This document shows positions 385-51,929 of a DNA stretch of 64,000 nt, piece after piece. Position numbers and translations under genes: made by a program. The notes beneath the pieces were generated by a model, which saw only the letters and a list, made by a program, of their open reading frames with translations, was not told the DNA's origin and made no database searches. The DNA is taken from positions 1,088,001-1,152,000 of the forward strand of contig OZ244044.1 in assembly GCA_965215275.1 (NCBI GenBank), in the 5' to 3' direction. Every line of letters starts with the position of its first letter. Within the stretch, counting starts at the first letter, position 1. The DNA comes from Thermodesulfobacteriota bacterium (GTDB lineage: Bacteria; Desulfobacterota_D; UBA1144; Nemesobacterales; JAJCZQ01).

Positions 385-528
385 TTGCTCTTGATCTCAA
401 TGTTTTCAGTACCAATCGGGAACCCATGTTCGTCCGTCCCGCCCGATACAGATAGAAATCTACTGAAATACCACCTCTATCTAATTCATAATTGTAAATT
501 TTTGTCAAGCAATTTCCATATAATTCCC
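385..528 (-). repeat. TIR-like end (GGGAATTATAT at 528-518) plus copy of the tnpB 3' (omegaRNA-like) segment
   Basis: Minus strand reads GGGAATTATAT...TTGACA...TGTATCGGGCGGGA...GGACGA...TCCCGAT...AACATTGAGATCAAGAGCAAGGAGG, which aligns by eye with 8371-8440. Confidence 0.65.
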
Positions 529-6894: not shown

Positions 6895-7018
6895 ATTTAT
6901 CCAGCCGCCTTTAATTGTGAAAAAGATGAATATATATTATGGGAATTATATACTCTGTTAGACAAAGACAGGCAAATAGCTTTGATAGTGCTGTAAAATT
7001 AGGGAATTATATATAGAT

Positions 7019-8473
7019 ATGGATAGTGAAGGAAGTGTGATCAGAAAGACGAGAGTAGACCTCAGGGCGGTTAAGTTGGATCCGTCTGCTCATAAGAAAC
7101 TGGAATCTATGTTAAACCAGCTTACCTATCTTTATAACCGAGCTCGTGAAGAAAGGATAAGATCATATGATAAATATGAGAAACTGATGAAATGGGGTTT
7201 ATCAGAAAAGAGATTTAAGACGTATTTCTATCCCCACTGGAAGTCTGGACTTTCTTATAATAAAGGTAATACAGTTAAACATATAGACAAGGTATATATA
7301 GCTCTTAACAGGGTTAGAAGTGAAGTCCGACCTTGTAACGACCCGTTAAACTGGAGAGAGTTATCAGAAAAAGAAATAGGAAAGAAGTCGATCAGTTACG
7401 AAGATCAGGCAAGATCACTGACGGAAATAAGGAACGACCTTTTACTGTCTGATGAGTTTAGTAAGGTTGACGCTCAAGCGCAACAGCGGACGTTACAAAG
7501 ACTGGATAAGGCTTATAAAGAATATCTAAAAGGGATACGTGGTCGTCCGAGATATAAGAACAGTAGCAGAAAGATAAAAAGTTTTGAAACTTACCAATGG
7601 AGTAGAGTTAAGAAACAAGACAGAAGAACTTCCTTGTCCGTAAAAGGAGCAGGCAGGATGAGTTTCAAAGGCAGGATACCGGAAGGAACTAAATACATAA
7701 GGATAGTAAGAACTGCTTTAAGAGTAGAGATACAGTTTGTATATGAAACAGTTGCAGGAGTGGACAGAGGGTCAGACAGACCGATAGGGATAGATCTCGG
7801 AGTGAAGAACAGAATTACCTTATCGGATGGAACTTTCTATAAAGGAACAGAAATAGACAGGAAGGAACTTAAAAGAAAGCAAAGAGCATTAAGCAGAGCT
7901 GAAAAAGGATCTAACAACAGAAACAAGAAGAAAACAGCTTATGCCAAAGAACGTGCAAGGACCACTGAAAGGGAACATAATAAAATACATGAATTAACTA
8001 CAGGGATAGTAAAGGGTCATGGTAATCATTTTATAGTAGAAGATCTGAAGTTAAAGAACATGACAAAGTCCGCTAAGGGGACATTGAAAGATCCTGGCAA
8101 GAAAGTAAAGCAGAAATCGGGATTGAACAGGTCTATACAGGAGCAGCAATTGGGAAAGGTCATTAGTCAGCTTACTTACAAGGTTGAGAGCACTGGAGGT
8201 AAGATAACTAAAGTTCCATCCCAATACACAAGCCAGACCTGTTCTGCATGCGGATACGTAGCTAAAAATAACAGAAAAGGAGAGTTATTTAAGTGCATGT
8301 CCTGTGGTTATACAGGCCATGCTGACTTAAACGCAGCTAATAACGTTCTCAAAAGAGGTTTATTCTTTTTGTCGGGTGGGAATAAGGACGAGAGTCTCCC
8401 GATGCAAGCTGGGAACATGATATCAAAAGAGAACGGGGTCAGAGGGACTCTGCTTGCAGAACAGTATATTTAG
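7019..8473 (+). CDS. tnpB: RNA-guided endonuclease TnpB family protein
   Basis: RuvC-I IGIDLG, RuvC-II IVEDL, Zn finger CSAC..CMSC, RuvC-III ADLNAA.N, plus YTSQTC and RLDKAY..Y...RGRPRYK. Confidence 0.93.
   Translation: MDSEGSVIRKTRVDLRAVKLDPSAHKKLESMLNQLTYLYNRAREERIRSYDKYEKLMKWGLSEKRFKTYFYPHWKSGLSYNKGNTVKHIDKVYIALNRVRSEVRPCNDPLNWRELSEKEIGKKSISYEDQARSLTEIRNDLLLSDEFSKVDAQAQQRTLQRLDKAYKEYLKGIRGRPRYKNSSRKIKSFETYQWSRVKKQDRRTSLSVKGAGRMSFKGRIPEGTKYIRIVRTALRVEIQFVYETVAGVDRGSDRPIGIDLGVKNRITLSDGTFYKGTEIDRKELKRKQRALSRAEKGSNNRNKKKTAYAKERARTTEREHNKIHELTTGIVKGHGNHFIVEDLKLKNMTKSAKGTLKDPGKKVKQKSGLNRSIQEQQLGKVISQLTYKVESTGGKITKVPSQYTSQTCSACGYVAKNNRKGELFKCMSCGYTGHADLNAANNVLKRGLFFLSGGNKDESLPMQAGNMISKENGVRGTLLAEQYI
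8371..8470 (+). ncRNA. Candidate omegaRNA scaffold overlapping the tnpB 3' end
   Basis: Stem GTCGGG/CCCGAT and hairpin CAGAG/CTCTG. The segment recurs in three other places in the window, and TnpB guide RNAs are known to derive from the element right end. Confidence 0.5.
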
Positions 8474-8647
8474 TATTTGTATAATAGAGTATATAATTCC
8501 CTTGCTTAATGACAAGGTTCAACGAACTTACGGTCTGAAAGGGATAAGGTCCGAGTAAACAGTTCATCTGCTGAAGCAAATTGCTACAAATGTCCTTTAT
8601 TTATAATTTAACTAAGGTGTACTTTTGTAACGGTTTTAGGAATTCCG

Positions 8648-10225: not shown

Positions 10226-10383
10226 AATATATAAAAGCAGATAAACAGTGTTCAGTCAGCACAAGCCGAATTATTTAATTTGGGAATTATATACAATAGT
10301 GACGAAGCCTCCAATAAATAGTTGACAAACTATAGATTTGTCATTATTACAGGTAAGAAAATTAAATAACTGGAGGAAGTTAT

Positions 10384-11325
10384 ATGTCAAAGAAAGCACC
10401 TGGGAAATCATACAGGAAAGGGATATCGTTAGTAAAGTTATTCAGGAAATTCCCTTCTGATGCTGTTGCAGAGGAATGGTTTGTAAAACAGAGGTGGGGA
10501 AAGGAACCCGTATGTCCGTATTGCGGGACAAGAAACGTTCAGACCGGGACTGGTCATAAGACAATGCCGTACAGGTACAGGGAAAAAGGACGTTCGAAAT
10601 GGTTCAGTGCAAGGAGCAGGACAGTTATGCAGTCTTCTAATATCAGGTATCAGGCTTGGGCAGTGGCAATATATCTTTTTGCCACGTCATTAAAGGGAGT
10701 ATCAAGTATGAAACTGCATAGAGATCTGGATATTACGCATAGGTCAGCATGGCATTTATCGCATCGTATCAGAGAGGCGTGGAACAGAGAAGAACTGCAA
10801 GTGTTTACAGGCTCCGTGGAGGCAGATGAGACGTTTACAGGTGGAAAGGAGAGAAACAAGCATAACAACAGGCGTAGTCATACACGAGGACCTGGAGGGA
10901 AGTCCATTGTTGCAGGAATGAAGAACAGAGAGACAAACAGGGTAACAGCACAACCGGTTTCTGAACGTAGTAAAGAGGAAATACAGGGTTTTACAGTTAA
11001 GAACGCAGGTAGTGGAGTAAAAACATATACCGATGATCATAAAAGCTATACAGGGTTGCCTTATGAGCATGAGAGCGTGGATCATAGTGTAAGGGAGTAC
11101 GTTAAAGAGCAGGCACATGTAAACGGAGTGGGATCGTTCCGGGCAATGTTAAAAAGAGGATATACCGGCACGTACCACAGAATGAGTAAAAAGCATTTAA
11201 ATCGTTATGTAAATGAGTTTTCGGGGAGGCATAATATAAGAAGACTGGACACGGAAGATCAGATGGGAACAACAGCAAGGGCAATGTATGGAAAGACCTT
11301 GCCTTATAAAGAACTGATAAGGTAA
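10384..11325 (+). CDS. IS1595-family DDE transposase, probably inactive
   Basis: CPYC Zn ribbon, KGVSSMKLHRDL, VEADET, YTDD, RYVNEFSGRHN. NGVGS replaces the usual NGIES/NGVES. Confidence 0.9.
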   Translation: MSKKAPGKSYRKGISLVKLFRKFPSDAVAEEWFVKQRWGKEPVCPYCGTRNVQTGTGHKTMPYRYREKGRSKWFSARSRTVMQSSNIRYQAWAVAIYLFATSLKGVSSMKLHRDLDITHRSAWHLSHRIREAWNREELQVFTGSVEADETFTGGKERNKHNNRRSHTRGPGGKSIVAGMKNRETNRVTAQPVSERSKEEIQGFTVKNAGSGVKTYTDDHKSYTGLPYEHESVDHSVREYVKEQAHVNGVGSFRAMLKRGYTGTYHRMSKKHLNRYVNEFSGRHNIRRLDTEDQMGTTARAMYGKTLPYKELIR

Positions 11326-11377
11326 TATGAATAATGTTACAGGATAAAAAACAGACCAAAAAACAAAGAAACTTGCA

Positions 11378-11566
11378 ATGACGAACAGGAAAAAAACAAT
11401 AGAGATCTTGCCAGGCAGTTATGAACCGACAGAAGAAGAGAAAGAGCATCCGTTTTCTATTGATACAACTCCGCAAAAGTCAGCAAAAGCTATCCTCCAG
11501 CCTGTCAACGTTAAAAAGAAGGATGTAAAGAAACACGTTGCTGAACGTTCAAAAAACAGGAAATGA
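11378..11566 (+). CDS. Small passenger ORF inside IS1595 copy 1
   Basis: 62-aa Lys-rich ORF that fills the space between the transposase and the right TIR. Confidence 0.55.
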   Translation: MTNRKKTIEILPGSYEPTEEEKEHPFSIDTTPQKSAKAILQPVNVKKKDVKKHVAERSKNRK

Positions 11567-11708
11567 TCCAGGTTTCGTCACTATTGTATATAATTCCCAT
11601 TTAATTTAACTGTCTCAAATACTTTTATTTTTGATATAACTTACTGAAATAATTTAGTTTTTATTGACAAAATGGTTATTATATAATATACTTTTATACA
11701 TACTAATA

Positions 11709-12814: not shown

Positions 12815-12855
12815 GGGAACTATATAGGAAAGTTGACAAAATCCCATAACTCCCT

Positions 12856-13041
12856 TTAATCATTAACTTCTTTTATAAGAGGATTTCCTTTAGGATCTAC
12901 TACTAATTTAAACCTTTTTTTCAGTTCTTCTTTGGTTGGTTTTTTAGGTCGTTTATGCGGGATCGAACCCATTTTTAACAACATCTTTGATGCTTTATCT
13001 ATTGCTTGTTCTTTTTCTTTTTTTGCTTTTAATCTTTTCAT
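12856..13041 (-). CDS. Small basic passenger ORF inside IS1595 copy 2
   Basis: 61-aa Lys-rich ORF between the transposase and the TIR, in the same position as in copy 1. Confidence 0.55.
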   Translation of the reverse strand: MKRLKAKKEKEQAIDKASKMLLKMGSIPHKRPKKPTKEELKKRFKLVVDPKGNPLIKEVND

Positions 13042-13095
13042 TATAAAACAAATAACTATTAAATATGATCAAGACTCCTCCATCATATGTCATCA

Positions 13096-14017
13096 TTACT
13101 GTGTTAACTCTTCAAAGGTTATAGTTTTTCCTGCCATATTTCTAAAAAGTGCATCCAGTTGATCTTGCGTGTCTGTTTTTACATTACCTTCATTTAACCT
13201 GAACGAAAACTCATCTATATATTTCTTAAGATGTTTTTTATTCCAATTGTGATATACACCTTTGTATCCACCCTTTAATACTGCCCAGACACTTTCAACC
13301 CCGTTTGTAGAAGCCATCGTATTTACAAACTCTTTTGCCCAATGATCGACCGTCTTATGCTCAAATTCTCTATCTGATAAACCTCTGTATCCTCTATGCT
13401 CATCTGTGTATATAATGGAACCTTCTGCAATGTTCTCTTTTATCTCTCTTGAAAGAGTTTCACTCTCTCTGTTCCGGATCACTTTTGCTCTGGTTCTGCC
13501 TCCCTTCTCCCTCATACCTGATATACAGACCTTTCCTGCAACTCCTCTGCCTTTATTTCGTTTCTTGCTCCCGTGCTTGTTCTTCTCAAGTCCACCTATG
13601 TATGTCTCGTCTATCTCTACTTCTCCTTTCAATAATACTTCCATATTACTTCCACAAGCAAGTCGCAACCTATGCAGCATATACCAGGCTGTTGTCTGGG
13701 TTACTTCTAACTCCTTGCTCAACTGTAAACTGCTTATTCCCTTTCGGGAAGTCATAAGCAAATATCCTGCAAATATCCACTTCCGCATACTCAAGTGGAG
13801 TGCCTGTTAAAGCAGTAAAATAACTCCGGCATTCCTTACACCAATACCTGCCATATGGTTTCTTCTGTCGTGTTATTTTCTTGCTGCTTCCACACTTTGT
13901 GCAGTTTATTTTCTTTCCCCAGCGTAATCCCTCAAAATACTTAATTACAGATTCTTTTGCAGGATACTTTTCCATTAACCCAAATAAACTGACCGTCTTC
14001 ACATGTCTTTTTTTCAT
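13096..14017 (-). pseudogene. IS1595-family transposase, frameshifted near 13790
   Basis: The N-terminal part (CTKC..YWCKEC Zn ribbon) and the C-terminal part (KGISSLQL, VEIDET, YTDE, NGVES) are in different frames. Confidence 0.9.
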
Positions 14018-14129
14018 ACAATAAATATGATCTTCTATCATCTCTTGTCAACTCTTGTGTCAATATATCCCCTGTTTTGTCAACTTCCCTATATAGTTCC
14101 CTAAGAAAGGAAAGAGAAAGACGTTATAC

Positions 14130-14205: not shown

Positions 14206-14286
14206 CCCCCCCCCCCCGTGTATACCTGACCTTTCAGCCTGGTATAAATATTTTGTAAGAACAATGTTTAAGATAATCCCCCCCCC
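14206..14286 (+). repeat. Two poly-C tracts (C12 at 14206-14217, C9 at 14278-14286)
   Basis: Counted directly; homologous tracts occur in paralog 2. Confidence 0.9.
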
Positions 14287-17200
14287 ATCTAAGTTATTAC
14301 TAACCTTAGTCTTTATTCTACTGAGTATCATGGTCATAGCTGCAAAAGGGCAGAGCAGCCTGGAAGAAACATTATCTGAATGCAGAGATATCAGTGCAGG
14401 TCTGGAAGATCCGTTATACGGATGTCAGTGGCATCTGAATAACACTGGACAGTTAAGTATTTCCGGAAAGAGAATAACAGCAGGAGAAGATATTAACGCA
14501 GAGGGAGTATGGAACGAAGAGGTATATGGTACTGGAATTAACGTAGCAGTTGTAAGTAATGGAATAGACCTTTCACATGAGGACCTTTCTGCTAAGGTCC
14601 GTTCGGAACTGAACTACAACTTTTCTGGAAAAGATAATTCAGACAGTTCAGAGTTAAGTGGTACACGAGCGGCAGGAGTAACGGCAGCGGCTGGATATAA
14701 CGGACTGGGAACAAGAGGAGTTGCACCTGGTGCGAGTATATACAGTAATAAGTTAACAGGAGATCTCAGGGAATCAGACGCAATGGAAGCAGGGGAAGCA
14801 ATGGTGCGTAATAAAGAAATAACTGCAGTATCCGTCAGCGACCGGGGATCTGAGGACGGAGTTTTTCTTCAGGGTGCTTCGGCTGAGTGGGAAGAGGGAG
14901 TGGAAGAGGGTATAAGGGAAGGGTTTTACGGCAGGGGAATATTTTACGTCCTGGGAGCAGGGGACGGACATGAGAGCGGAGATCAGGCTAATTTTTCTGA
15001 ATATTCCAATTACTACGGGGTAACAGCGGTGTGTTCAACGGACGGTTCTGGAAAGAAGAGCTTGTTTTCAGAAGAGGGAGTGAATCTGTGGGTATGTGCG
15101 CCTGGTCCTGATATAGCGACCACTGATAGCGACGACGATCACGCCGTGACGTCCGGAACTGTCCTTTCAGTTTCACGGGTCGCAGGTGTGGCGGCACTGC
15201 TGAGAGAGGTAAACGAAGACCTGAGCTGGAGGGATATAAAGCTTATACTTGCGGGTTCGGCACGGCAGAACGACGTTCCTGACATTAGCTGGGAGACTGG
15301 AGCGGTAAAATACGGTTCCGACGTGGAAAGATACAGATACAGTTCGAAATACGGTTTTGGCGTGGTGGACGCGGAGGCGGCCGCAGAGCTTGCCGGAAGC
15401 TGGAAAGGAGTGGGAGAAATGAGGACCGTTACAGCTTCCTCGGATAATGAACTGACGATCCCTGATGGAGAAGGAGAGGCGGACGGGGTCCTTACCTCCA
15501 GACTTATGATTTCGGACCTGGAGGAAATATTTACGGAGTTCGTTGAGGTAGAACTCGTTCTCTCGTGTGACTGCCTGCAGGACCTCAATATACGGATAAC
15601 CTCTCCTTCCGGGACAGTATCGGAACTTGTGCGGGAGTCTGCCAGTGAGTTTGTAAGGGGATCTTCGAATGAAGAAAACGACTGCGTCAGTTACCTGGGG
15701 AAAAAACATCGTTTCGGTTCGGCAAGACACCTCGGGGAAGACCCTTCCGGAGAATGGACCCTTAAGATATATAATACTGCTTCCGGAGATGAAGAAGATA
15801 CAGAAAATACCGTTACCCTGCACTCATGGAGCATCAGGGTATACGGGCACGGGAAGGAAGATACTTTAACGGACTTTGGCGGGGAGATCACTGCCAAGGC
15901 TTTAACTTTGGGTAATGTTCCTGGTGGTAGGCTGACCTGGACGCAACATAAGCTGGTAAACGCAAGGTTATTCGAGGCAGCCGGAGGCAGGCCGCCGTAT
16001 ACTTACAGTTTAGCTCCTTTACCTCCTGGATTGAATTTTAACGGAACCACCAGAATTATAAACGGGAGACCGACCGCTGCAGGTGACACCGACGTTCAGT
16101 ATACGGCAAGAGACGCAAATAACGATACGGCACGGAGTGACTTCGTTATAAGGATAACGGCGAACGCCGCGCCGGTTTTTGGCAGCAAGACGGTTGCTGC
16201 TCAGGTGTACACGGCAAGGAAAGCAATAGAACCATTGGAACTTCCCGAGGCAACGGGAGGGGATGGAACCTTGACTTACAATATAAGTGGTAACGTCAGG
16301 GGTATAGGGTTGAACTTTAACCGTAACACAAGGATACTGAGCGGAATGCCCACCAGTGTTACGCCTGGTATTACAGCCGTTTATACCGCCACTGACGCAG
16401 ATGGAGATACTGCCGAGCTGAGGTTCAATATACGGGTAAGACATCAGAACGACATACCGACCTTCGGCAGTCAGATGGTAGATGATCAGAATTGGGTTAA
16501 CGGCAGTGCGGTAAGGCTAACGCTGCCTCGTGCAAGAAACGGGAATGGAACGTTAACCTACGGTATAACCCCTGCTTTGCCTGATGGACTGGACTTTGAT
16601 CCTGGTACCAGAGTGCTGAGCGGAACACCGACCGCTGCGGCACCTGAGAACACTTACACGTATACGGTAACGGACAGTGATAACGATATTCATGAAAGTG
16701 ATTCTGACAGTCTGACCTTCAGGATAAGAATAAAAGCTGCAACTGAAGTCCCAAGTTTCGGCAGTCAGACGGTAGGTAATAAGATTTATACAGCAGGGGT
16801 TCAAATATCACCATTCACGTTACCTCTTGCAACGCAAGGAACTGGAATTACACTCAGGTTAACCCCTCGTTTACCTTCCGGATTGAATTTTAACCATGCT
16901 ACCGGAGAGATAAGTGGAATACCGACCACTGCAACGTCTGAGACTGATTATACATGGAGAGCAACGGACAGAGACGGATATACGGCTGAGATAACGTTCA
17001 GTATAACGATAAGAGCAGCAGACACGGAACCGACCTTCGGCGGTGAGACGACGGATGATCAGGAATACGTGGCAGGAAGTCAGATAACGCCGGTAACGCT
17101 GCCAGTGGCAACGGGAGGAAATGCTCCGTTAGCCTACGGTATAACCCCTGATCTGCCTGCTGGACTGGACTTTGATGAAAACGCCCGAGTGCTGAGCGGA

Positions 17201-18043
17201 ACACCTACTACTGCAACGAGTAAGAATACCTATACATATACTGTAACGGACGAAGATGGAGACACGGATGAAATTGAGTTCGGTATCACCGTGTCGGAGG
17301 ACACAATGCCGACCTTCGACGGTGAGACGATAGAAGACAAGGTGACCGTTAACGGCGTTACAGAAGTAATGGAAACGCTGCCTCTTGCAACAGGAGGGAA
17401 CGGAACGCTGACTTACAGTTTAACTGATGCCGGTTCAAATGCTTTGAATTTATTTGCCGGACTGGACTGGGATGACAACACCCGGGTGCTGAGCGGAACA
17501 CCCAATATCGGTTCAGCGCTGCTTCATCTGCTTCCTCGAACCGAGACTTACACGTGGACGGTAACGGACGAAGATGGAGATACAGCAGAGATAACGTTCA
17601 GTATAGTAATAGAAGAAGACAGCATGCCGGAATTCAGTGTGACGACGATAGAAGATCAGGTGTACAGGGGGAGATCAATAATGTTGCCGGTAGCAACGGG
17701 AGGGAATGCACCGTTAGTATACAGTATAACGCCTCCCTTACCTCCTGTATTGAGATTGAACGAAAACACCGGGGTAATAAGCGGGACGTCCGTCCGTGCG
17801 TCATCTGCTGCTACTTACAGGTATACGGTAACGGACAGGGACGGAGACATGAAAGAGTTGACCTTCAGGTTCAGTGCAGCGGCTCCGCCACCGACAAGTA
17901 GTAATTCAGGCGGAGGTGGAGGATGTGCTGTATCAGATCAGAGCATCGCCATTTTTGATATTCTCGGAGTAATGGCATGTCTGATACTTATACCCGTGTC
18001 TGTAATTATCAGAAGGAAAAGAAGATCTCAGATAAAGACTTAG
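14264..18043 (+). CDS. Surface protein: degenerate S8 subtilase + proprotein convertase P-domain + ~7 putative Ig (He_PIG-like) repeats + C-terminal sorting signal
   Basis: DPLY..QWHL.N, LSWRDIKLIL, YGFGVVDA, L.I.ITSPSGT, GEDPSGEWTL, repeated LP.GL.FD..TR.LSGTPT and TDxDGD, tail GGGGGCAVS-TM-RRKRR. Confidence 0.85.
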   Translation: MFKIIPPPSKLLLTLVFILLSIMVIAAKGQSSLEETLSECRDISAGLEDPLYGCQWHLNNTGQLSISGKRITAGEDINAEGVWNEEVYGTGINVAVVSNGIDLSHEDLSAKVRSELNYNFSGKDNSDSSELSGTRAAGVTAAAGYNGLGTRGVAPGASIYSNKLTGDLRESDAMEAGEAMVRNKEITAVSVSDRGSEDGVFLQGASAEWEEGVEEGIREGFYGRGIFYVLGAGDGHESGDQANFSEYSNYYGVTAVCSTDGSGKKSLFSEEGVNLWVCAPGPDIATTDSDDDHAVTSGTVLSVSRVAGVAALLREVNEDLSWRDIKLILAGSARQNDVPDISWETGAVKYGSDVERYRYSSKYGFGVVDAEAAAELAGSWKGVGEMRTVTASSDNELTIPDGEGEADGVLTSRLMISDLEEIFTEFVEVELVLSCDCLQDLNIRITSPSGTVSELVRESASEFVRGSSNEENDCVSYLGKKHRFGSARHLGEDPSGEWTLKIYNTASGDEEDTENTVTLHSWSIRVYGHGKEDTLTDFGGEITAKALTLGNVPGGRLTWTQHKLVNARLFEAAGGRPPYTYSLAPLPPGLNFNGTTRIINGRPTAAGDTDVQYTARDANNDTARSDFVIRITANAAPVFGSKTVAAQVYTARKAIEPLELPEATGGDGTLTYNISGNVRGIGLNFNRNTRILSGMPTSVTPGITAVYTATDADGDTAELRFNIRVRHQNDIPTFGSQMVDDQNWVNGSAVRLTLPRARNGNGTLTYGITPALPDGLDFDPGTRVLSGTPTAAAPENTYTYTVTDSDNDIHESDSDSLTFRIRIKAATEVPSFGSQTVGNKIYTAGVQISPFTLPLATQGTGITLRLTPRLPSGLNFNHATGEISGIPTTATSETDYTWRATDRDGYTAEITFSITIRAADTEPTFGGETTDDQEYVAGSQITPVTLPVATGGNAPLAYGITPDLPAGLDFDENARVLSGTPTTATSKNTYTYTVTDEDGDTDEIEFGITVSEDTMPTFDGETIEDKVTVNGVTEVMETLPLATGGNGTLTYSLTDAGSNALNLFAGLDWDDNTRVLSGTPNIGSALLHLLPRTETYTWTVTDEDGDTAEITFSIVIEEDSMPEFSVTTIEDQVYRGRSIMLPVATGGNAPLVYSITPPLPPVLRLNENTGVISGTSVRASSAATYRYTVTDRDGDMKELTFRFSAAAPPPTSSNSGGGGGCAVSDQSIAIFDILGVMACLILIPVSVIIRRKRRSQIKT

Positions 18044-18144
18044 TAATGAGGTCCTTTCAAAGGTATTGAACTAACCAAGATATTTCCCATCAGAATATTT
18101 GCTGGTTGCTTACGGGAGAAGAAGTGGTATCTCCATAGTTAAAG

Positions 18145-18264
18145 TCCTCTTTTTCTTTTGATCTTCAATGTTCTTATTACCACAAGGTTTTCCACCCGAT
18201 ACAAATATGATACTGTTAAAAACGTCTTTTTTATTCATTTGGCGGAGTTAGCTATATAATTTCC
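18145..18264 (-). repeat. TIR-like end (GGAAATTATATA) plus remnant of the tnpB 3' segment
   Basis: Minus strand reads ...GACGTTTTTAACAGTATCATATTTGTATCGGGTGGAAA...GAACATTGAAGATCAAAAGAAAAAGAGGAC. It translates as DVFNSIIFVSGG, compared with NVLKRGLFFLSGG in TnpB. Confidence 0.6.
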
Positions 18265-25263: not shown

Positions 25264-25788
25264 GAAAATTATATAATTCAGCAACGAAAGCGAGCAAAGA
25301 ACCTGATAGCACTATAAGTTTTGGTAATAATATATAGCAATATGTTAAACAAACAAGAACATACAGCTGAAATGAAAACTGATCGCAGAAAGGCTTGTCC
25401 GTACAGCTCAGCTTACAAGAGGTCAGACGGGTGTTTAAAATAACCTGTTTTTATAACCGTGCTTTACAAAAAATGAAGTTCACAGAATAACAAACAGTAT
25501 GATCAGACAGAGTAACAGCATGGTAATGGAAGATCTGCAGGCAGATAAGATGATTAAAAACGGACCTTTATCTGAAAGAGCATTTAACTGTGGTGATTCT
25601 GAAGATAAAGACATAAATGCCGATATAAATATCCTTAACGGGTATTTATCTGTATCGGGTGGGACAACTGAAGAACAGCTGCCGGCAGGTTCCAAGGATA
25701 TAATGGGTCAAAAGAAAACGGGGACAGAGCAGTCCTGCGATCAAAACAGTATAATCAGTTGCTGCGGGTAAAACTGATCGTATATCCC
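25264..25788 (+). mobile_element. Internally deleted, degenerate tnpB element (MITE-like)
   Basis: Left end resembles 6941-7021. Residual VMEDLQADKM and DINADINIL...SGG motifs; 3' segment matches 8371-8468. Confidence 0.75.
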
Positions 25789-30545: not shown

Positions 30546-33500
30546 ATCTAAGTCATTACTAACGTTAGTCTTATTTCTTCTGATTATTATGGTCATAGCT
30601 GCAAAAGGGCAGAGCAGTCTGGAAGAAACATTATCTGAATGCAGAGGTATGAGTTCAGACACGGAAGATCCGTTATACGGATGTCAGTGGCATCTGAAAA
30701 ACACGGGGCAGTTTGGTTTTTCCGGAAAGAGAATAACAGCAGGAGAAGATATAAACATAGAGGGAGTGTGGAACGAAGACGTATACGGTACCGGAATTAA
30801 CATAGCAATAGTAAGTAACGGCATTGACCTTTCACATGAGGACCTTTCTGCTAAGGTCCGTTCCGGACTGAACTATGATCTGTCTGACAGTTCATCTTTT
30901 AGTGGAACACGAGCGGCAGGTGTAATAGCAGCAACTGGATATAACGGACTGGGAGTAAGAGGAACAGCACCTGGTGCGAGTATATACAGTTACAGGTTAT
31001 CCGGTGATCTCAGTGAAGCGGACGCGGTGGTCCGTAATAAGGAAATAACTGCAGTATTGGTTAACGGCCGGGGATATGAGGAAGGAGCTTTTTTTCAGGA
31101 GGCTTTGGCTGAGTGGGAAGAAGGAGTGGAACTTGGAATAAGAGAAGGGTTTTATGGTAAAGGTGTGTTTTACGTCCGGGGAGCAGGGGACGGTCATGAG
31201 AATAACGATCAGGCTAATTTTTCTGAATATTCAAACTATTACGGAGTAACGGCTGTGTGTTCAACGGACGGTTCTGGAAAGAAGAGTTTATTTTCAGAAG
31301 AGGGAGTAAATCTATGGGTATGTGCACCTGGTTCTGATATTGTGACCACAGATAATAACGACGGCTACGTTGTAACTTCCGGAACATTTCTATCAGCTTC
31401 ACAGGTTGGAGGAGTGGCAGCACTGCTGAGAGAGATAAATGGACAGCTGAGCTGGAGGGATATAAAGCTTATACTTGCGGGTTCAGCACGGCAGAACGAT
31501 TTTTTTGATATGAGCTGGGAGACTGGAGCTGTTAAATACGGTTCTGATACGGAAAGATATAAATATAATCCTAAGTATGGTTTTGGCGTGGTAGACGCAG
31601 AAGCAGCTGCAGAACTTGCAAAAAGCTGGAAAGGCGTTGGAGAGATGAGGACCATTACAGCTTCTTCAGATAATGAACTGACAATTCCTGATGGAGAAGG
31701 AGAAGCAGACGGGGTCCTTGTTTCCAGACTTATGATCCCGGACCTGGAGGAAATATTTACGGAATTCGTTGAGGTAGAACTTGTTTTCTCTCATGACCGC
31801 TTACAGGACCTTGATATAAAAATAACCTCTCCTTCCGGGACAGTATCTGAACTTGTAAGGGAGTTTTCAGGGGAAGCGGAAGACGCTGATATCAGTTACC
31901 TGAGAAGAACACATCGTTTCGGGTCGGCAAAGCACCTCGGAGAAGACCCTTCCGGAGAATGAATCCTTAAAATATCCGATACTGCTTCCGGAGATGAAGA
32001 AGCAGAAGATGGAGAAGAAGTGGGGACCTTACACTCATGGAGCATTAAGGTATACGGGAATTTTTATCAGGGACATGGCAGTGAGATCACTACTAAAGCT
32101 ATAAGTCTGCCTTTTATTGCTAATAAGGAATACACACAAAATACTTCAGTAGAAGACACGTATCCTGAAGCAACGGGAGATAATCCGCCTTATACTTATA
32201 GATTTGTTCGCGGTACATTACCAGATGGACTAAGCTTTGATCCTGACACCCGGGTGCTGAGCGGAACACCAACTACTGTAGGTAGGAAAACTGCTCAATA
32301 TTTAGCAGAAGACGCAAGTGGAGATATAGCAAGGAGGACCTTCTTTATAACTATAACAGCAGGACCGCCAACCTTTTCAGGAGCAACGGTCCCTGAACAG
32401 ATATGGACGGAAGGGGTAAGGATACCAACATTACGTTTTCCTAATGCAACGGGAGGTAACGGAACTTTAACATACTTTTTAAGTCCTGCGCAGCCAGTTG
32501 GTATCAGCAGACAGGACAACAGGTTATTCGGAACACCTACGGAACCTCAAAGAAGATCTCTTTATACATGGACAGTCAGAGACAAAGATAATGATGAGGA
32601 TATTATTGAGTTCTATATTACTGTAAGAGAGAACGTCCCTACCTTCGGAGGTCAGACCATACCTCAGCAGAATTATATAGTAGGCAGAACAATACAAAGA
32701 TTAGTATTTCCTCGTGCAACGGGAGAGGAACCGTTAACTTACAATTTAGAAGGAGGTCCGACTAATTTACCAGGTGGATTGAACTTAGTAAGTAATCCAA
32801 CAAGTATAATAGGAACACCAACTACAACGGCGGACATTAATTACAGATGGACAGTTACGGACAAAGATGGAGATAAGACAGAACTTCCGTTCAGGATGAA
32901 GATAAGGTCTGCATCTGAAGTACCGGACTTCGGCAGTGAGACGGTAGAAGATCAGGTGTGGGGTAACGGCAGAGCAGTAACGTTAACTCTGCCTCAGGCA
33001 ACTGGAGGGAATGGAACTTTAAATTACAGTTTAAGCGGTGTTATACCAAATGGACTTACTTTTAACCAAAACACCAGAACGTTAAGTGGAACGCTCAACA
33101 TTGTTGATACAAGTATATTACCTGTAACTGGAACTTATACCTGGAAGGTAACTGACTCTGACTCAGATGATGACGGTGATTCTGACAGTATTACCTTCTC
33201 TATTACTATAGAAACTGATTCAGAGCCGAGCTTCGGAGGTCAGACCATCCCAAATCAGACATATATTGAAAGGACAACCTTCGGTCTTCCAGTAACGCTG
33301 CCTGAAGCAGTTACAAATACAGGGAATGGGACTTTAATTTACAGTTTAAACCGTAGTTTACCTAGTGGTTTGAGCTTTGATCCTGCTACCAGAGTGATAA
33401 GTGGAACTCCAACTCATAGGCAACCTATTTTTTCAACTTATACATATAGGGTAAGAGATAATGATGGAGATACGGCTAATCTGAGTTTCCGCCTGCAAAT

Positions 33501-34569
33501 AATCGGTAACACCCGGCCAAGCTTTCATAATACGATAACAGATAAGGTGTATTATACGTTTACAGCAGTAACGGAAACGTTACCTGAGGCAGCACAAAAT
33601 AATAATCCACCTTCAACTTACAGTTTAACTCCTGCATTACCTGATGGACTGATCTTTACCCCTGCTACCAGAGAGATAACAGGAACACCAACTGCTGCAA
33701 TGTCTGAGACTGATTACACGTATACGGTTGCTGATCTAAATGGAGATACGGACGAGTTAACATTCAGTATCACTGTATTGGCAGTAGCAGACACGGAACC
33801 GACCTTCGGCAGTGAAACTATAGATAACAAGGTATATATAAACTACGGAGAAGCAGTAACGGAAACACTGCCTGAAGCAACGTCAGGGAATGCACCATTA
33901 ACTTACAGTTTAAAGAGGGACCATTTTGGTAGTTTCACTACTGCTTTATTTAAGGGATTGACATTTACTGCAAACACCAGAGAGTTAAGCGGAACACCCA
34001 ATCTTGATATTCATCCAAGTCTATTTCCTGTAACTGCTACTCATACATATAAAGTAAGAGACAATGATGGAGATACAGCAGAGATAATGTTCAGTATAAC
34101 AATAGAAGAAGACAGCGAACCGGACTTCAGCGGTGTGACAATACCAGATCGTGTGTACACGGGGAGAACAATAGAGCTGCCAGAGGCAGCGGGAGGGAAT
34201 TTACCAGTTACTTACAGTATAACACCTGATCTGCCAGCTGGATTGAGATTTAACGAAGTAACGCGGGAAATAAGTGGGACACCCAGGAGTGCATCAACAA
34301 GAACTTACACGTATACGGTAACGGACAGCAATGGAGATACGGATGATGCGACTTTCATGCTCAGTGTAGAGGTTACTTCTACTCCAGGACCAACACCACC
34401 ACGAGGACCAAGAACGTCAGGTACTGATTCAGGCGGAGGTGGAGGAGGATGTGCTGTATCAGAGCAGAGCAGCGTTGATGAAGATATTCTCGGAGTAATG
34501 ACATGTCTGATACTTATACCTGTGTCAGTAACGATAAGAAGAAAGAGAAGAGCTCAGGTAAAGACTTAG
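30522..34569 (+). pseudogene. Surface protein paralog 2 (degenerate S8 + P-domain + ~8 Ig-like repeats + sorting signal), out of frame at poly-C and with an internal TGA
   Basis: ORFs 30589-31962 and 32020-34569 are in the same frame, separated by TGA where paralog 1 has TGG. ATG 30522 stops just after the C9 tract. Confidence 0.85.
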
Positions 34570-50190: not shown

Positions 50191-50264
50191 GGGCCCATAG
50201 CTCAGTTGGTCAGAGCAGCGGACTCATAATCCGTTGGTCCCAGGTTCGAGTCCTGGTGGGCCCA
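50191..50264 (+). tRNA. tRNA with CAT anticodon (probably Ile2; Met not excluded), CCA not encoded
   Basis: GGGCCCA acceptor stem, D arm AGCTCAGTTGGTCAGAGC, anticodon arm GCGGA-CTCATAA-TCCGT, GGTTCGAGTCC. Confidence 0.93.
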
Positions 50265-51527: not shown

Positions 51528-51891
51528 GCGAGTTAGCTAAGCGGTCGCTTGCTCAGGCAAGAGGAAAGTCCGAACTTCAAAGGGTAGTGTGCTGGTTAAT
51601 GGCCAGGTACCGTGAGGTAACGGAAAGTGCCTCAGAAAAGATACCGCCTATGCATAATATATGCAGGTAAGGGTGAAATGGCAGTGTAAGAGACTACCGC
51701 TCTGATCGGTGACGATCATTGGCAAGGCAAACCCCGCACGAAGAAAGGCAAAATAGAGAAGCACCTGAAACTTTCGTTTCAGACTGGGCGACCCGTCCAA
51801 TGCTTCCGGGTGTGCCGCTAAAGATATTCAGTAATGAATATTTTAGATGAATGACCGCTCACGACAGAATTCGGCTTACAGGTTAACTCGC
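51528..51891 (+). ncRNA. rnpB: RNase P RNA (class A)
   Basis: GAGGAAAGTCC, GGAAAGTGC..CAGAAAA, GGGTGAAA, ACAGAATTCGGCTTA; terminal P1 pairing GCGAGTTAGC/GTTAACTCGC. Confidence 0.96.
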
Positions 51892-51929
51892 TGCTAAATT
51901 TCTCTAATACGTTTCAGGAGAACAACAGA

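Follow-up and report, generated by a model that had tools for sequence, protein, structure and literature searches.

In the survey of Altae-Tran et al. (2023), inverted repeats were reported at six DDE-linked TnpB branches (PMC10691335). In one of these, DDE-5, DDE inverted repeats enclose TnpB, and a TA motif is found 8 bp upstream of the end of the transposon (PMC10691335, supplementary information). IS1595 is not named in the main text of that paper and appears in its supplement only within a profile list, and the parts of the text covered here give neither an omegaRNA fold nor a guide boundary for the DDE branches. A 2026 review regards prokaryotic TnpB on a DDE transposon as rare and uncharacterised, naming ISL2, IS630 and IS1031 (PMC13565253), and a literature search outside subscription journals surfaced no paper on a TnpB inside IS1595 ends. 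The hallmarks of IS1595 are 25-bp TIRs and 8-bp repeats (PMC5704250).

The window, the whole 64,000-nucleotide stretch of DNA that was analysed, contains a conserved segment which is predicted to be the guide-RNA scaffold of a TnpB carried within IS1595-type transposon ends. The features of this element, and of a neighbouring transposase element, are as follows.

6931-6932 (+): TA directly outside the left copy of the target duplication, the candidate TAM; putative, and weak for the group A subfamily
6933-6940 (+): left copy of the 8-bp target duplication, TATATTAT
6941-6969 (+): left TIR of IS1595 type, GGGAATTATA..., an inverted repeat with 8473-8501 that starts as the TIRs of IS1595 transposase elements do
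7002-7011 (+): second, inner TIR-like motif (composite left end), common to all three near-identical copies
7019-8473 (+): tnpB, from Pfam, NF040570 and alignment
8372-8501 (+): predicted omegaRNA scaffold core, 5' end unmapped, ending at the TIR tip; from fold and covariance model
8473-8501 (+): right TIR; its tip, ATTCCC at 8496-8501, would form the 3' strand of the predicted pseudoknot; from the inverted repeat and tip conservation
8502-8521 (+): host DNA flanking the element, the predicted guide region, with an uncertainty of 1-2 nt in its first base; from the pseudoknot register and the TAM-like motif
10282-11598 (+): element encoding an IS1595 transposase, its TIRs starting in the same way, and a candidate for the helper family; from PF12762, NF033547 (151.8 bits, cut-off 75) and TIRs

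The open reading frame at 7019-8473 (+) is tnpB. Its product of 484 aa matches Pfam PF01385 and PF07282 and NF040570 (174 bits, cut-off 100), and alignment shows both features expected of a TnpB, an intact RuvC D-E-D triad (D259/E341/D436) and a C4 zinc finger. The TIRs at 6941-6969 and 8473-8501 form a 29-nt inverted repeat of 90% identity, and the 1.99-Mb genome has 138 occurrences of their start, GGGAAYTATA, which also bounds IS1595 transposase genes. The tnpB element has no transposase gene of its own; its TIRs are 25-29 bp and its duplications 8 bp, so that both IS1595 features, TIRs of ∼25 bp like those of IS1595 transposase elements and an 8-bp target duplication, are present. Two other assignments were rejected. 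IS200/IS605 elements (IS1341-type) are defined without TIRs or duplication (PMC13565253) and this element has both, and IS607 elements, with serine recombinase ends and neither TIRs nor duplication, were excluded by the TIRs and by an NF038280 score of 90 bits (cut-off 350).

The right target duplication is absent at the window copy in this strain. In run X8, from another study, 8 extra nucleotides, TATTATTA, directly follow 8501 and match the left flank TATATTAT with a one-base slip. The left end (6941-7011) is composite, consisting of the outer TIR, ∼60 bp resembling another IS1595 end (G000:60743) and the second TIR; it is common to all three near-identical copies, and the duplication of one copy fits the outer TIR. 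Group A TnpBs also carry an insertion of ∼70 residues (residues ∼52-122; 7170-7385 in the window), which groups B and g10 lack.

Ends of this kind enclose 19 tnpB elements of the genome, which fall into groups A (8, including the window's), B (8) and C (3, with a different RNA type), and 8-bp AT-rich duplications are found at many of the 19. Across genomes, 132 elements were parsed from 293 loci and 126 were assigned to named groups; duplications match at ≥7/8 bases in 77/126, and the other 49, the window copy among them, were excluded from motif counts. No empty allele and no element-skipping junction was seen in 8 DNA runs (of 19 runs), a contig gap being no proof of one. IS1595 transposases were found in the window's genome and in 10/10 other carrier genomes searched, and an IS1595 transposase presumably moves the tnpB element in trans. 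The window itself contains two IS1595 transposase elements, at 10282-11598 and 12815-14101, the latter split into two open reading frames (232 and 123 aa) and probably frameshifted.

Among described systems, ISDra2 (IS200/IS605; PMC10097598) resembles the element as predicted here in an RNA that runs over the tnpB 3' end, a pseudoknot between a 5' loop and the RNA end, a guide from the right flank and a TAM in the left flank. Unlike ISDra2, the element has TIRs and an 8-bp duplication and lacks a Y1 TnpA, its terminal hairpin would be made from the TIR, and its putative TAM and left end lie 8 bp apart, the motif comprising only 1-3 bases. In Fanzor1 and Fanzor2* (PMC10711439, PMC13565253) a TIR is likewise built into the RNA scaffold; there, however, the whole duplication lies in the scaffold and its 5' copy is read as the TAM, whereas here the duplication would act as the seed and has the motif outside it. 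The IS1595 passengers MTnSag1 and tISCpe8 share the 25-bp TIRs and 8-bp direct repeats (PMC5704250), but the element differs from them in that its passenger is an RNA-guided nuclease whose RNA would use the TIR itself, and in that no transposase lies inside. The geometry of DDE-5 is also shared, the window's family having a motif 8 bp upstream of the transposon end; the likeness is one of geometry.

A sequence-only reading of this DNA had described the conserved segment as an omegaRNA-like motif in four copies. TCGGGYGGRA does occur exactly four times in the window, at 8372 (+), 25655 (+), 446 (-) and 18199 (-), while shuffled windows contain a mean of 0.46 and 0/100 reach four. The copies had been correctly picked out, with positions off by 1-8 nt; the T or A placed before the motif is contradicted by the 8372 copy, which is preceded by G, and the CCCGAT block is found in the 8372 and 446 copies, has a degenerate form at 25655 and is missing at 18199. 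The longer block common to the 8372 and 25655 copies up to AACAGTATA is present as described. Both of these copies have a terminal hairpin and a TCCC end at near-equal distance (8501; 25788).

A covariance model, the check that had been proposed, was built from 16 copies (15 tnpB elements and the 25655 remnant). The segments 8370-8501 and 25653-25788 score, both being in the training set, and 448-361, outside the training set, scores at E 5.8e-5. The 18199 copy gave no match to the model and was tied to the family via another genomic copy, with 73% identity over 131 nt, which itself scores at E 4.8e-6. Genome-wide there are 32 matches, half of them (16) in tnpB elements and the other 16 in remnants or miniature elements. 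The motif copies are not rare, and the window's four belong to a larger genomic set. The other three in the window are decayed or truncated remnants.

25655-25788 (+): full-length, degenerate omegaRNA of a decayed, internally deleted tnpB element; from an upstream tnpB remnant, the fold (-8.5 kcal/mol) and the model match
388-446 (-): omegaRNA 5' half in a truncated miniature element with left TIR 528-519; from the model match
18140-18199 (-): truncated remnant with a left TIR-like motif at 18264-18255, lacking the stem 1 3' arm and the entire 3' half

The 446 and 18199 copies cannot carry a guide. The 446 copy is followed by AGGAGG, a ribosome site, and the ATG of a host open reading frame at 370, and the stretch 528-370 (-) contains a promoter-like TTGACA...TATGAAT before them, a possible case of promoter donation. 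The 18199 remnant lies antisense behind a subtilase/Ig gene. It is one of a set behind a repeated C-terminal sorting-like tail, which was found at 12 of the 17 loci examined across the genome; at many of these the same element remnant follows it. The remnant has therefore likely spread with that gene family. Subtilase, P-domain and Ig-repeat paralogues are encoded at 14264-18043, ending in a Gly-Gly-Gly-Cys/hydrophobic/basic tail, and at 30589-34569, the second in two open reading frames.

An Rfam search of the window returned only RNase P and a tRNA at gathering score (RNase P RNA class A at 51529-51894; the tRNA at 50191-50264), with no match at E≤10 in 8200-8600, and a promoter scan around the omegaRNA gave no signal above chance. 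The predicted fold of the segment is made up of the following parts.

8372-8402 (+): stem 1, 8372-76 pairing with 8398-8402, and its pseudoknot loop, GGGAAT (8378-8383); from covariation
8403-8458 (+): stem 2 (8403-09 with 8452-58), enclosing stem 3 (8435-40 with 8446-51)
8464-8494 (+): terminal hairpin, 5' arm 8464-73, 3' arm 8485-94, the latter being the inner right TIR

Stems 1-3 show compensatory changes, and in stem 2 three pairs have changed on both sides between groups A and B. Single-sequence folding of 8371-8501 was uninformative, doing no better than shuffles (z -1.0). The segment overlaps the tnpB reading frame to 8473 and could in principle reflect codon constraint on the TnpB tail, with no functional RNA. 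Conservation that follows codons without covariation, which the earlier reading had set against its own proposal, is contradicted by the compensatory pairs and by the A2 subfamily, in which the motif lies in another reading frame, tnpB stops 43 nt after the motif start and the remainder is kept. The protein tail is also poorly conserved, and copies without tnpB retain the fold. Because the segment is kept in another frame past the A2 stop, and without tnpB, codon constraint fails as an explanation, and it is the least probable of the alternatives considered. The naming of the segment as the TnpB omegaRNA scaffold, by contrast, appears to hold: it overlaps the 3' end of an intact tnpB, its stems covary and it is kept outside the codon frame.

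Conservation had been said to stop just inside the TIR, and the scaffold to end at AACAGTATA. Primary sequence does diverge there, but structure continues, and the end at that point was not borne out; over the next ∼30 nt the strand folds back to pair with the inner TIR, forming a covarying hairpin, which opens at the G of AACAGT and has the inner TIR as its 3' arm. Over 54 distinct ends, 287/324 cells of the hairpin are paired, compared with 30-216 when it is slid by 1-2 bases, and at its four variable pairs 180/216 are paired, compared with a shuffled mean of 134 and maximum of 152, although the rows are related, are not independent tests and give overstated p-values. Four of its six pairs change on both sides. 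The mean fold is -6.7 kcal/mol for right ends, -2.4 for left ends of the same elements and -3.0/-1.6 for transposase-element ends; at -3.6 kcal/mol, the terminal hairpin of the window copy is one of the weaker. At 25655 the sequence is quite different, and the same hairpin fold (-8.5 kcal/mol) and the TCCC tip are kept.

After the terminal hairpin seven bases are left. Complementarity to the TIR tip is found in the GGGA loop (8378-81), and its register is the one known from the ISDra2 pseudoknot. There, -103A to -105G are the partners of -5U to -3C, and the guide starts right after -1 (PMC10097598); in this register position -1 falls on 8501. GGGA is invariant in 46/46 class I RNAs, and the right tip reads TCCC or TTCC in 77/77 elements (left tips, 61/77), while a CCCC tip, present at 9/34 transposase-element ends, is never found at the right tips of tnpB elements. 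RNAalifold, unprompted, pairs the G run with the tip. A metagenome scan gave mainly ordinary IS200/605-type TnpBs, only L085 and L086 being of the TIR-bounded kind, and the remaining TnpBs, of IS200/605 type, were used as controls. In these, the loop at the same position pairs with positions -6 to -3 of its own end in 34/36 vs 38/72 when crossed, and with Watson-Crick pairs only in 22/36 vs 7/72. The four core pairs hardly vary and hence show no covariation, and pairs 5 and 6 are broken in 14 and 21 of 46 rows. A co-change of loop and tip in A2 (3/4 copies) was rejected as covariation, being a single event, with GTCCC tips occurring elsewhere without a matching loop. Since a hairpin is formed from the inner TIR and the GGGA loop complements the TIR tip, the predicted scaffold likely ends at 8501.

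In genus g10 (two rows unparsed), RNAs with GGGAAT loops have T at tip position -5 in 22/23 and mixed first flank bases, and those with other loops, most with U before GGGA, have T at tip -5 in 11/25 and A as first flank base in 23/25. This association of loop and flank base, which is confounded by start-codon effects, suggests a shifted register in the other loops that would include the first duplicated base. IS607 takes up a single flanking base (PMC10711439), and the shifted register of g10 may do likewise.

A scaffold ending at AACAGTATA would leave the inner TIR as a fixed guide aimed at the element's own ends. The fall in primary sequence conservation after AACAGTA fits such a guide; the stretch is, however, half of a covarying hairpin and would be self-base-paired, and no 5' loop complements AACAGTA, whereas GGGA complements the tip. 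When the genome was searched for both candidate guides, perfect 16-nt matches of the inner-TIR candidates of all 16 group A and B elements lay only in sister elements at the same position, with none at left ends or at IS1595 TIRs. The flank guides were each unique at 16/16, among them the window's at 8502-8521 at a perfect 16-nt match, and their 2-mismatch matches were scattered. With an inner-TIR guide, moreover, an active nuclease would target its own element, and the motif outside the left duplication would be left unexplained. A fixed inner-TIR guide is accordingly judged highly improbable. The guide is most likely flanking host DNA, as in known TnpB systems, and the suggested departure from IS605 homing logic would give way to the ordinary arrangement of a scaffold running to the last base and a guide taken from the flank.

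A guide from the flank predicts a TAM just outside the left duplication and on one side only. Among deduplicated class I(g10)+B sites, G is found at -1 in 35/36 and at the mirror position in 8/36, and it remains in 18/19 after removal of NTG sites. Within this genome the motif differs by group: TG precedes 6/8 group B elements (background, 7/144), A is at -1 in 8/8 of group A (62/144 at other TIR-like ends) and TA precedes 3/3 of group C. Class II of g10 is less clear, with G in 13/25 and a purine-rich position. There is no motif at the 3' end of the duplication, and its bases 3-8 are merely AT-rich. Statistically, the one-sided, subfamily-specific motif outside the left duplication appears TAM-like, as expected, the case being weaker for group A.

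Alternatively, the helper transposase might choose targets asymmetrically, or insertions might survive at start codons, and the same motif would result, with the RNA boundary as proposed and TnpB taking no part in site retention. G at -1 is common to several TnpB groups of two separate clades, as a preference of the transposase would allow, and in g10 17/58 sites lie directly after a host start codon, which inflates TG/A there; all 17 (L036, L038, L086, L167, L189, L257 and L263 among them) have an in-frame replacement ATG supplied from the right end of the element. Transposase elements nevertheless lack G on either side (0/9; background, 16/144), the control being small, with nine sites and paired TIRs at 2/26 loci from other genomes, and comprising elements that may not be true helpers. 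The motif also varies by TnpB group within one genome (TG, A, TA), and 0/6 group B sites tested were at a start codon. Transposase preference or start-codon survival is thus considered unlikely, while carrying more weight than the other alternatives.

In a Fanzor-like geometry, known for Fanzors in cut-and-paste transposons (PMC10711439, PMC13565253), the whole right duplication would be counted as scaffold and the left one read as the TAM, with a guide that begins only after the duplication. The first duplicated base is fixed within subfamilies (T in 16/16 of groups A and B, compared with 62/144; A in 25/25 of class II), and part of the duplication may be scaffold. Bases 3-8 do not share this constraint, however, no motif lies beside the would-be guide and the conserved motif lies outside the duplication, which makes the Fanzor-like arrangement distinctly improbable. 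The fixed first base is also the source of the doubt over where the flank guide begins: there is roughly an even chance that it starts at duplication base 1, and a start 1-2 nt later is only somewhat less probable.

Taken together, the preferred reading, to which a probability of about 0.82 is given, is that the segment is an omegaRNA scaffold whose predicted fold runs via a covarying hairpin to the tip of the right TIR, with a guide likely taken from the flank, beginning at the 8-bp duplication. The transcript would be trimmed to the scaffold and about 16-20 nt of flank, and the GGGA loop would pair with the UCCC tip as the usual TnpB pseudoknot. TnpB would then cut element-free alleles, which present the TAM, then the duplication as seed and then the right flank, and such cutting would favour the filled allele, either as repair template or through its survival. 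Sites that hold the element would be protected at both junctions, because the left junction matches only 8 nt of the guide and at the right junction CCC replaces the TAM. IS1595 transposition may be replicative (PMC5704250), in which case the target is more likely to be an unoccupied sister or incoming allele than an excision site.

This reading removes the surprising self-directed fixed guide and gives exact predicted boundaries for a prokaryotic TnpB on a DDE transposon, the new part being how TIR and duplication are fitted into the guide RNA. If true, it would be a third fit between guide RNA and transposase: IS605 has no duplication, Fanzors hold the duplication in the scaffold and here the duplication would act as seed. 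The predicted TAMs are very short (G/TG, A/TA), which is relevant to compact editing tools, and the many insertion sites offer a natural read-out of TnpB selection.

In another genus belonging to the same order, 30/36 genomes have TnpB matches; there, as in Rhodothermaceae and in one gammaproteobacterial MAG, the same TIR-bounded layout was seen. A quick tree placed TIR-bounded TnpBs in two separate well-supported clades with ordinary TnpBs in between; its group table undercounts, six II(other) rows and two further TIR rows being unlabelled. A tentative scenario, which we regard as slightly more likely to fail than to hold in full, is that IS1595 captured TnpB at least two times, that each time the last hairpin of the guide RNA was rebuilt from the inverted repeat and the 8-bp duplication became the seed, and that in some lineages the pseudoknot came to include the first duplicated host base (U-GGGA with UCCC-A). 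TnpBs with TAMs of 1-3 bases might then shape where DDE elements persist, serving as a homing drive for a transposon without clean excision.

Two arrangements elsewhere were also observed. At one locus (L057:1469-3016 region, G000:1616480-1619604) two tnpB elements lie back to back, with only their two 8-bp duplications between them. At another (L083, G000:1742862-1743187) a 326-bp miniature element carries a complete omegaRNA and has a perfect 8-bp duplication with TG outside; it is a candidate stand-alone guide for a group B TnpB.
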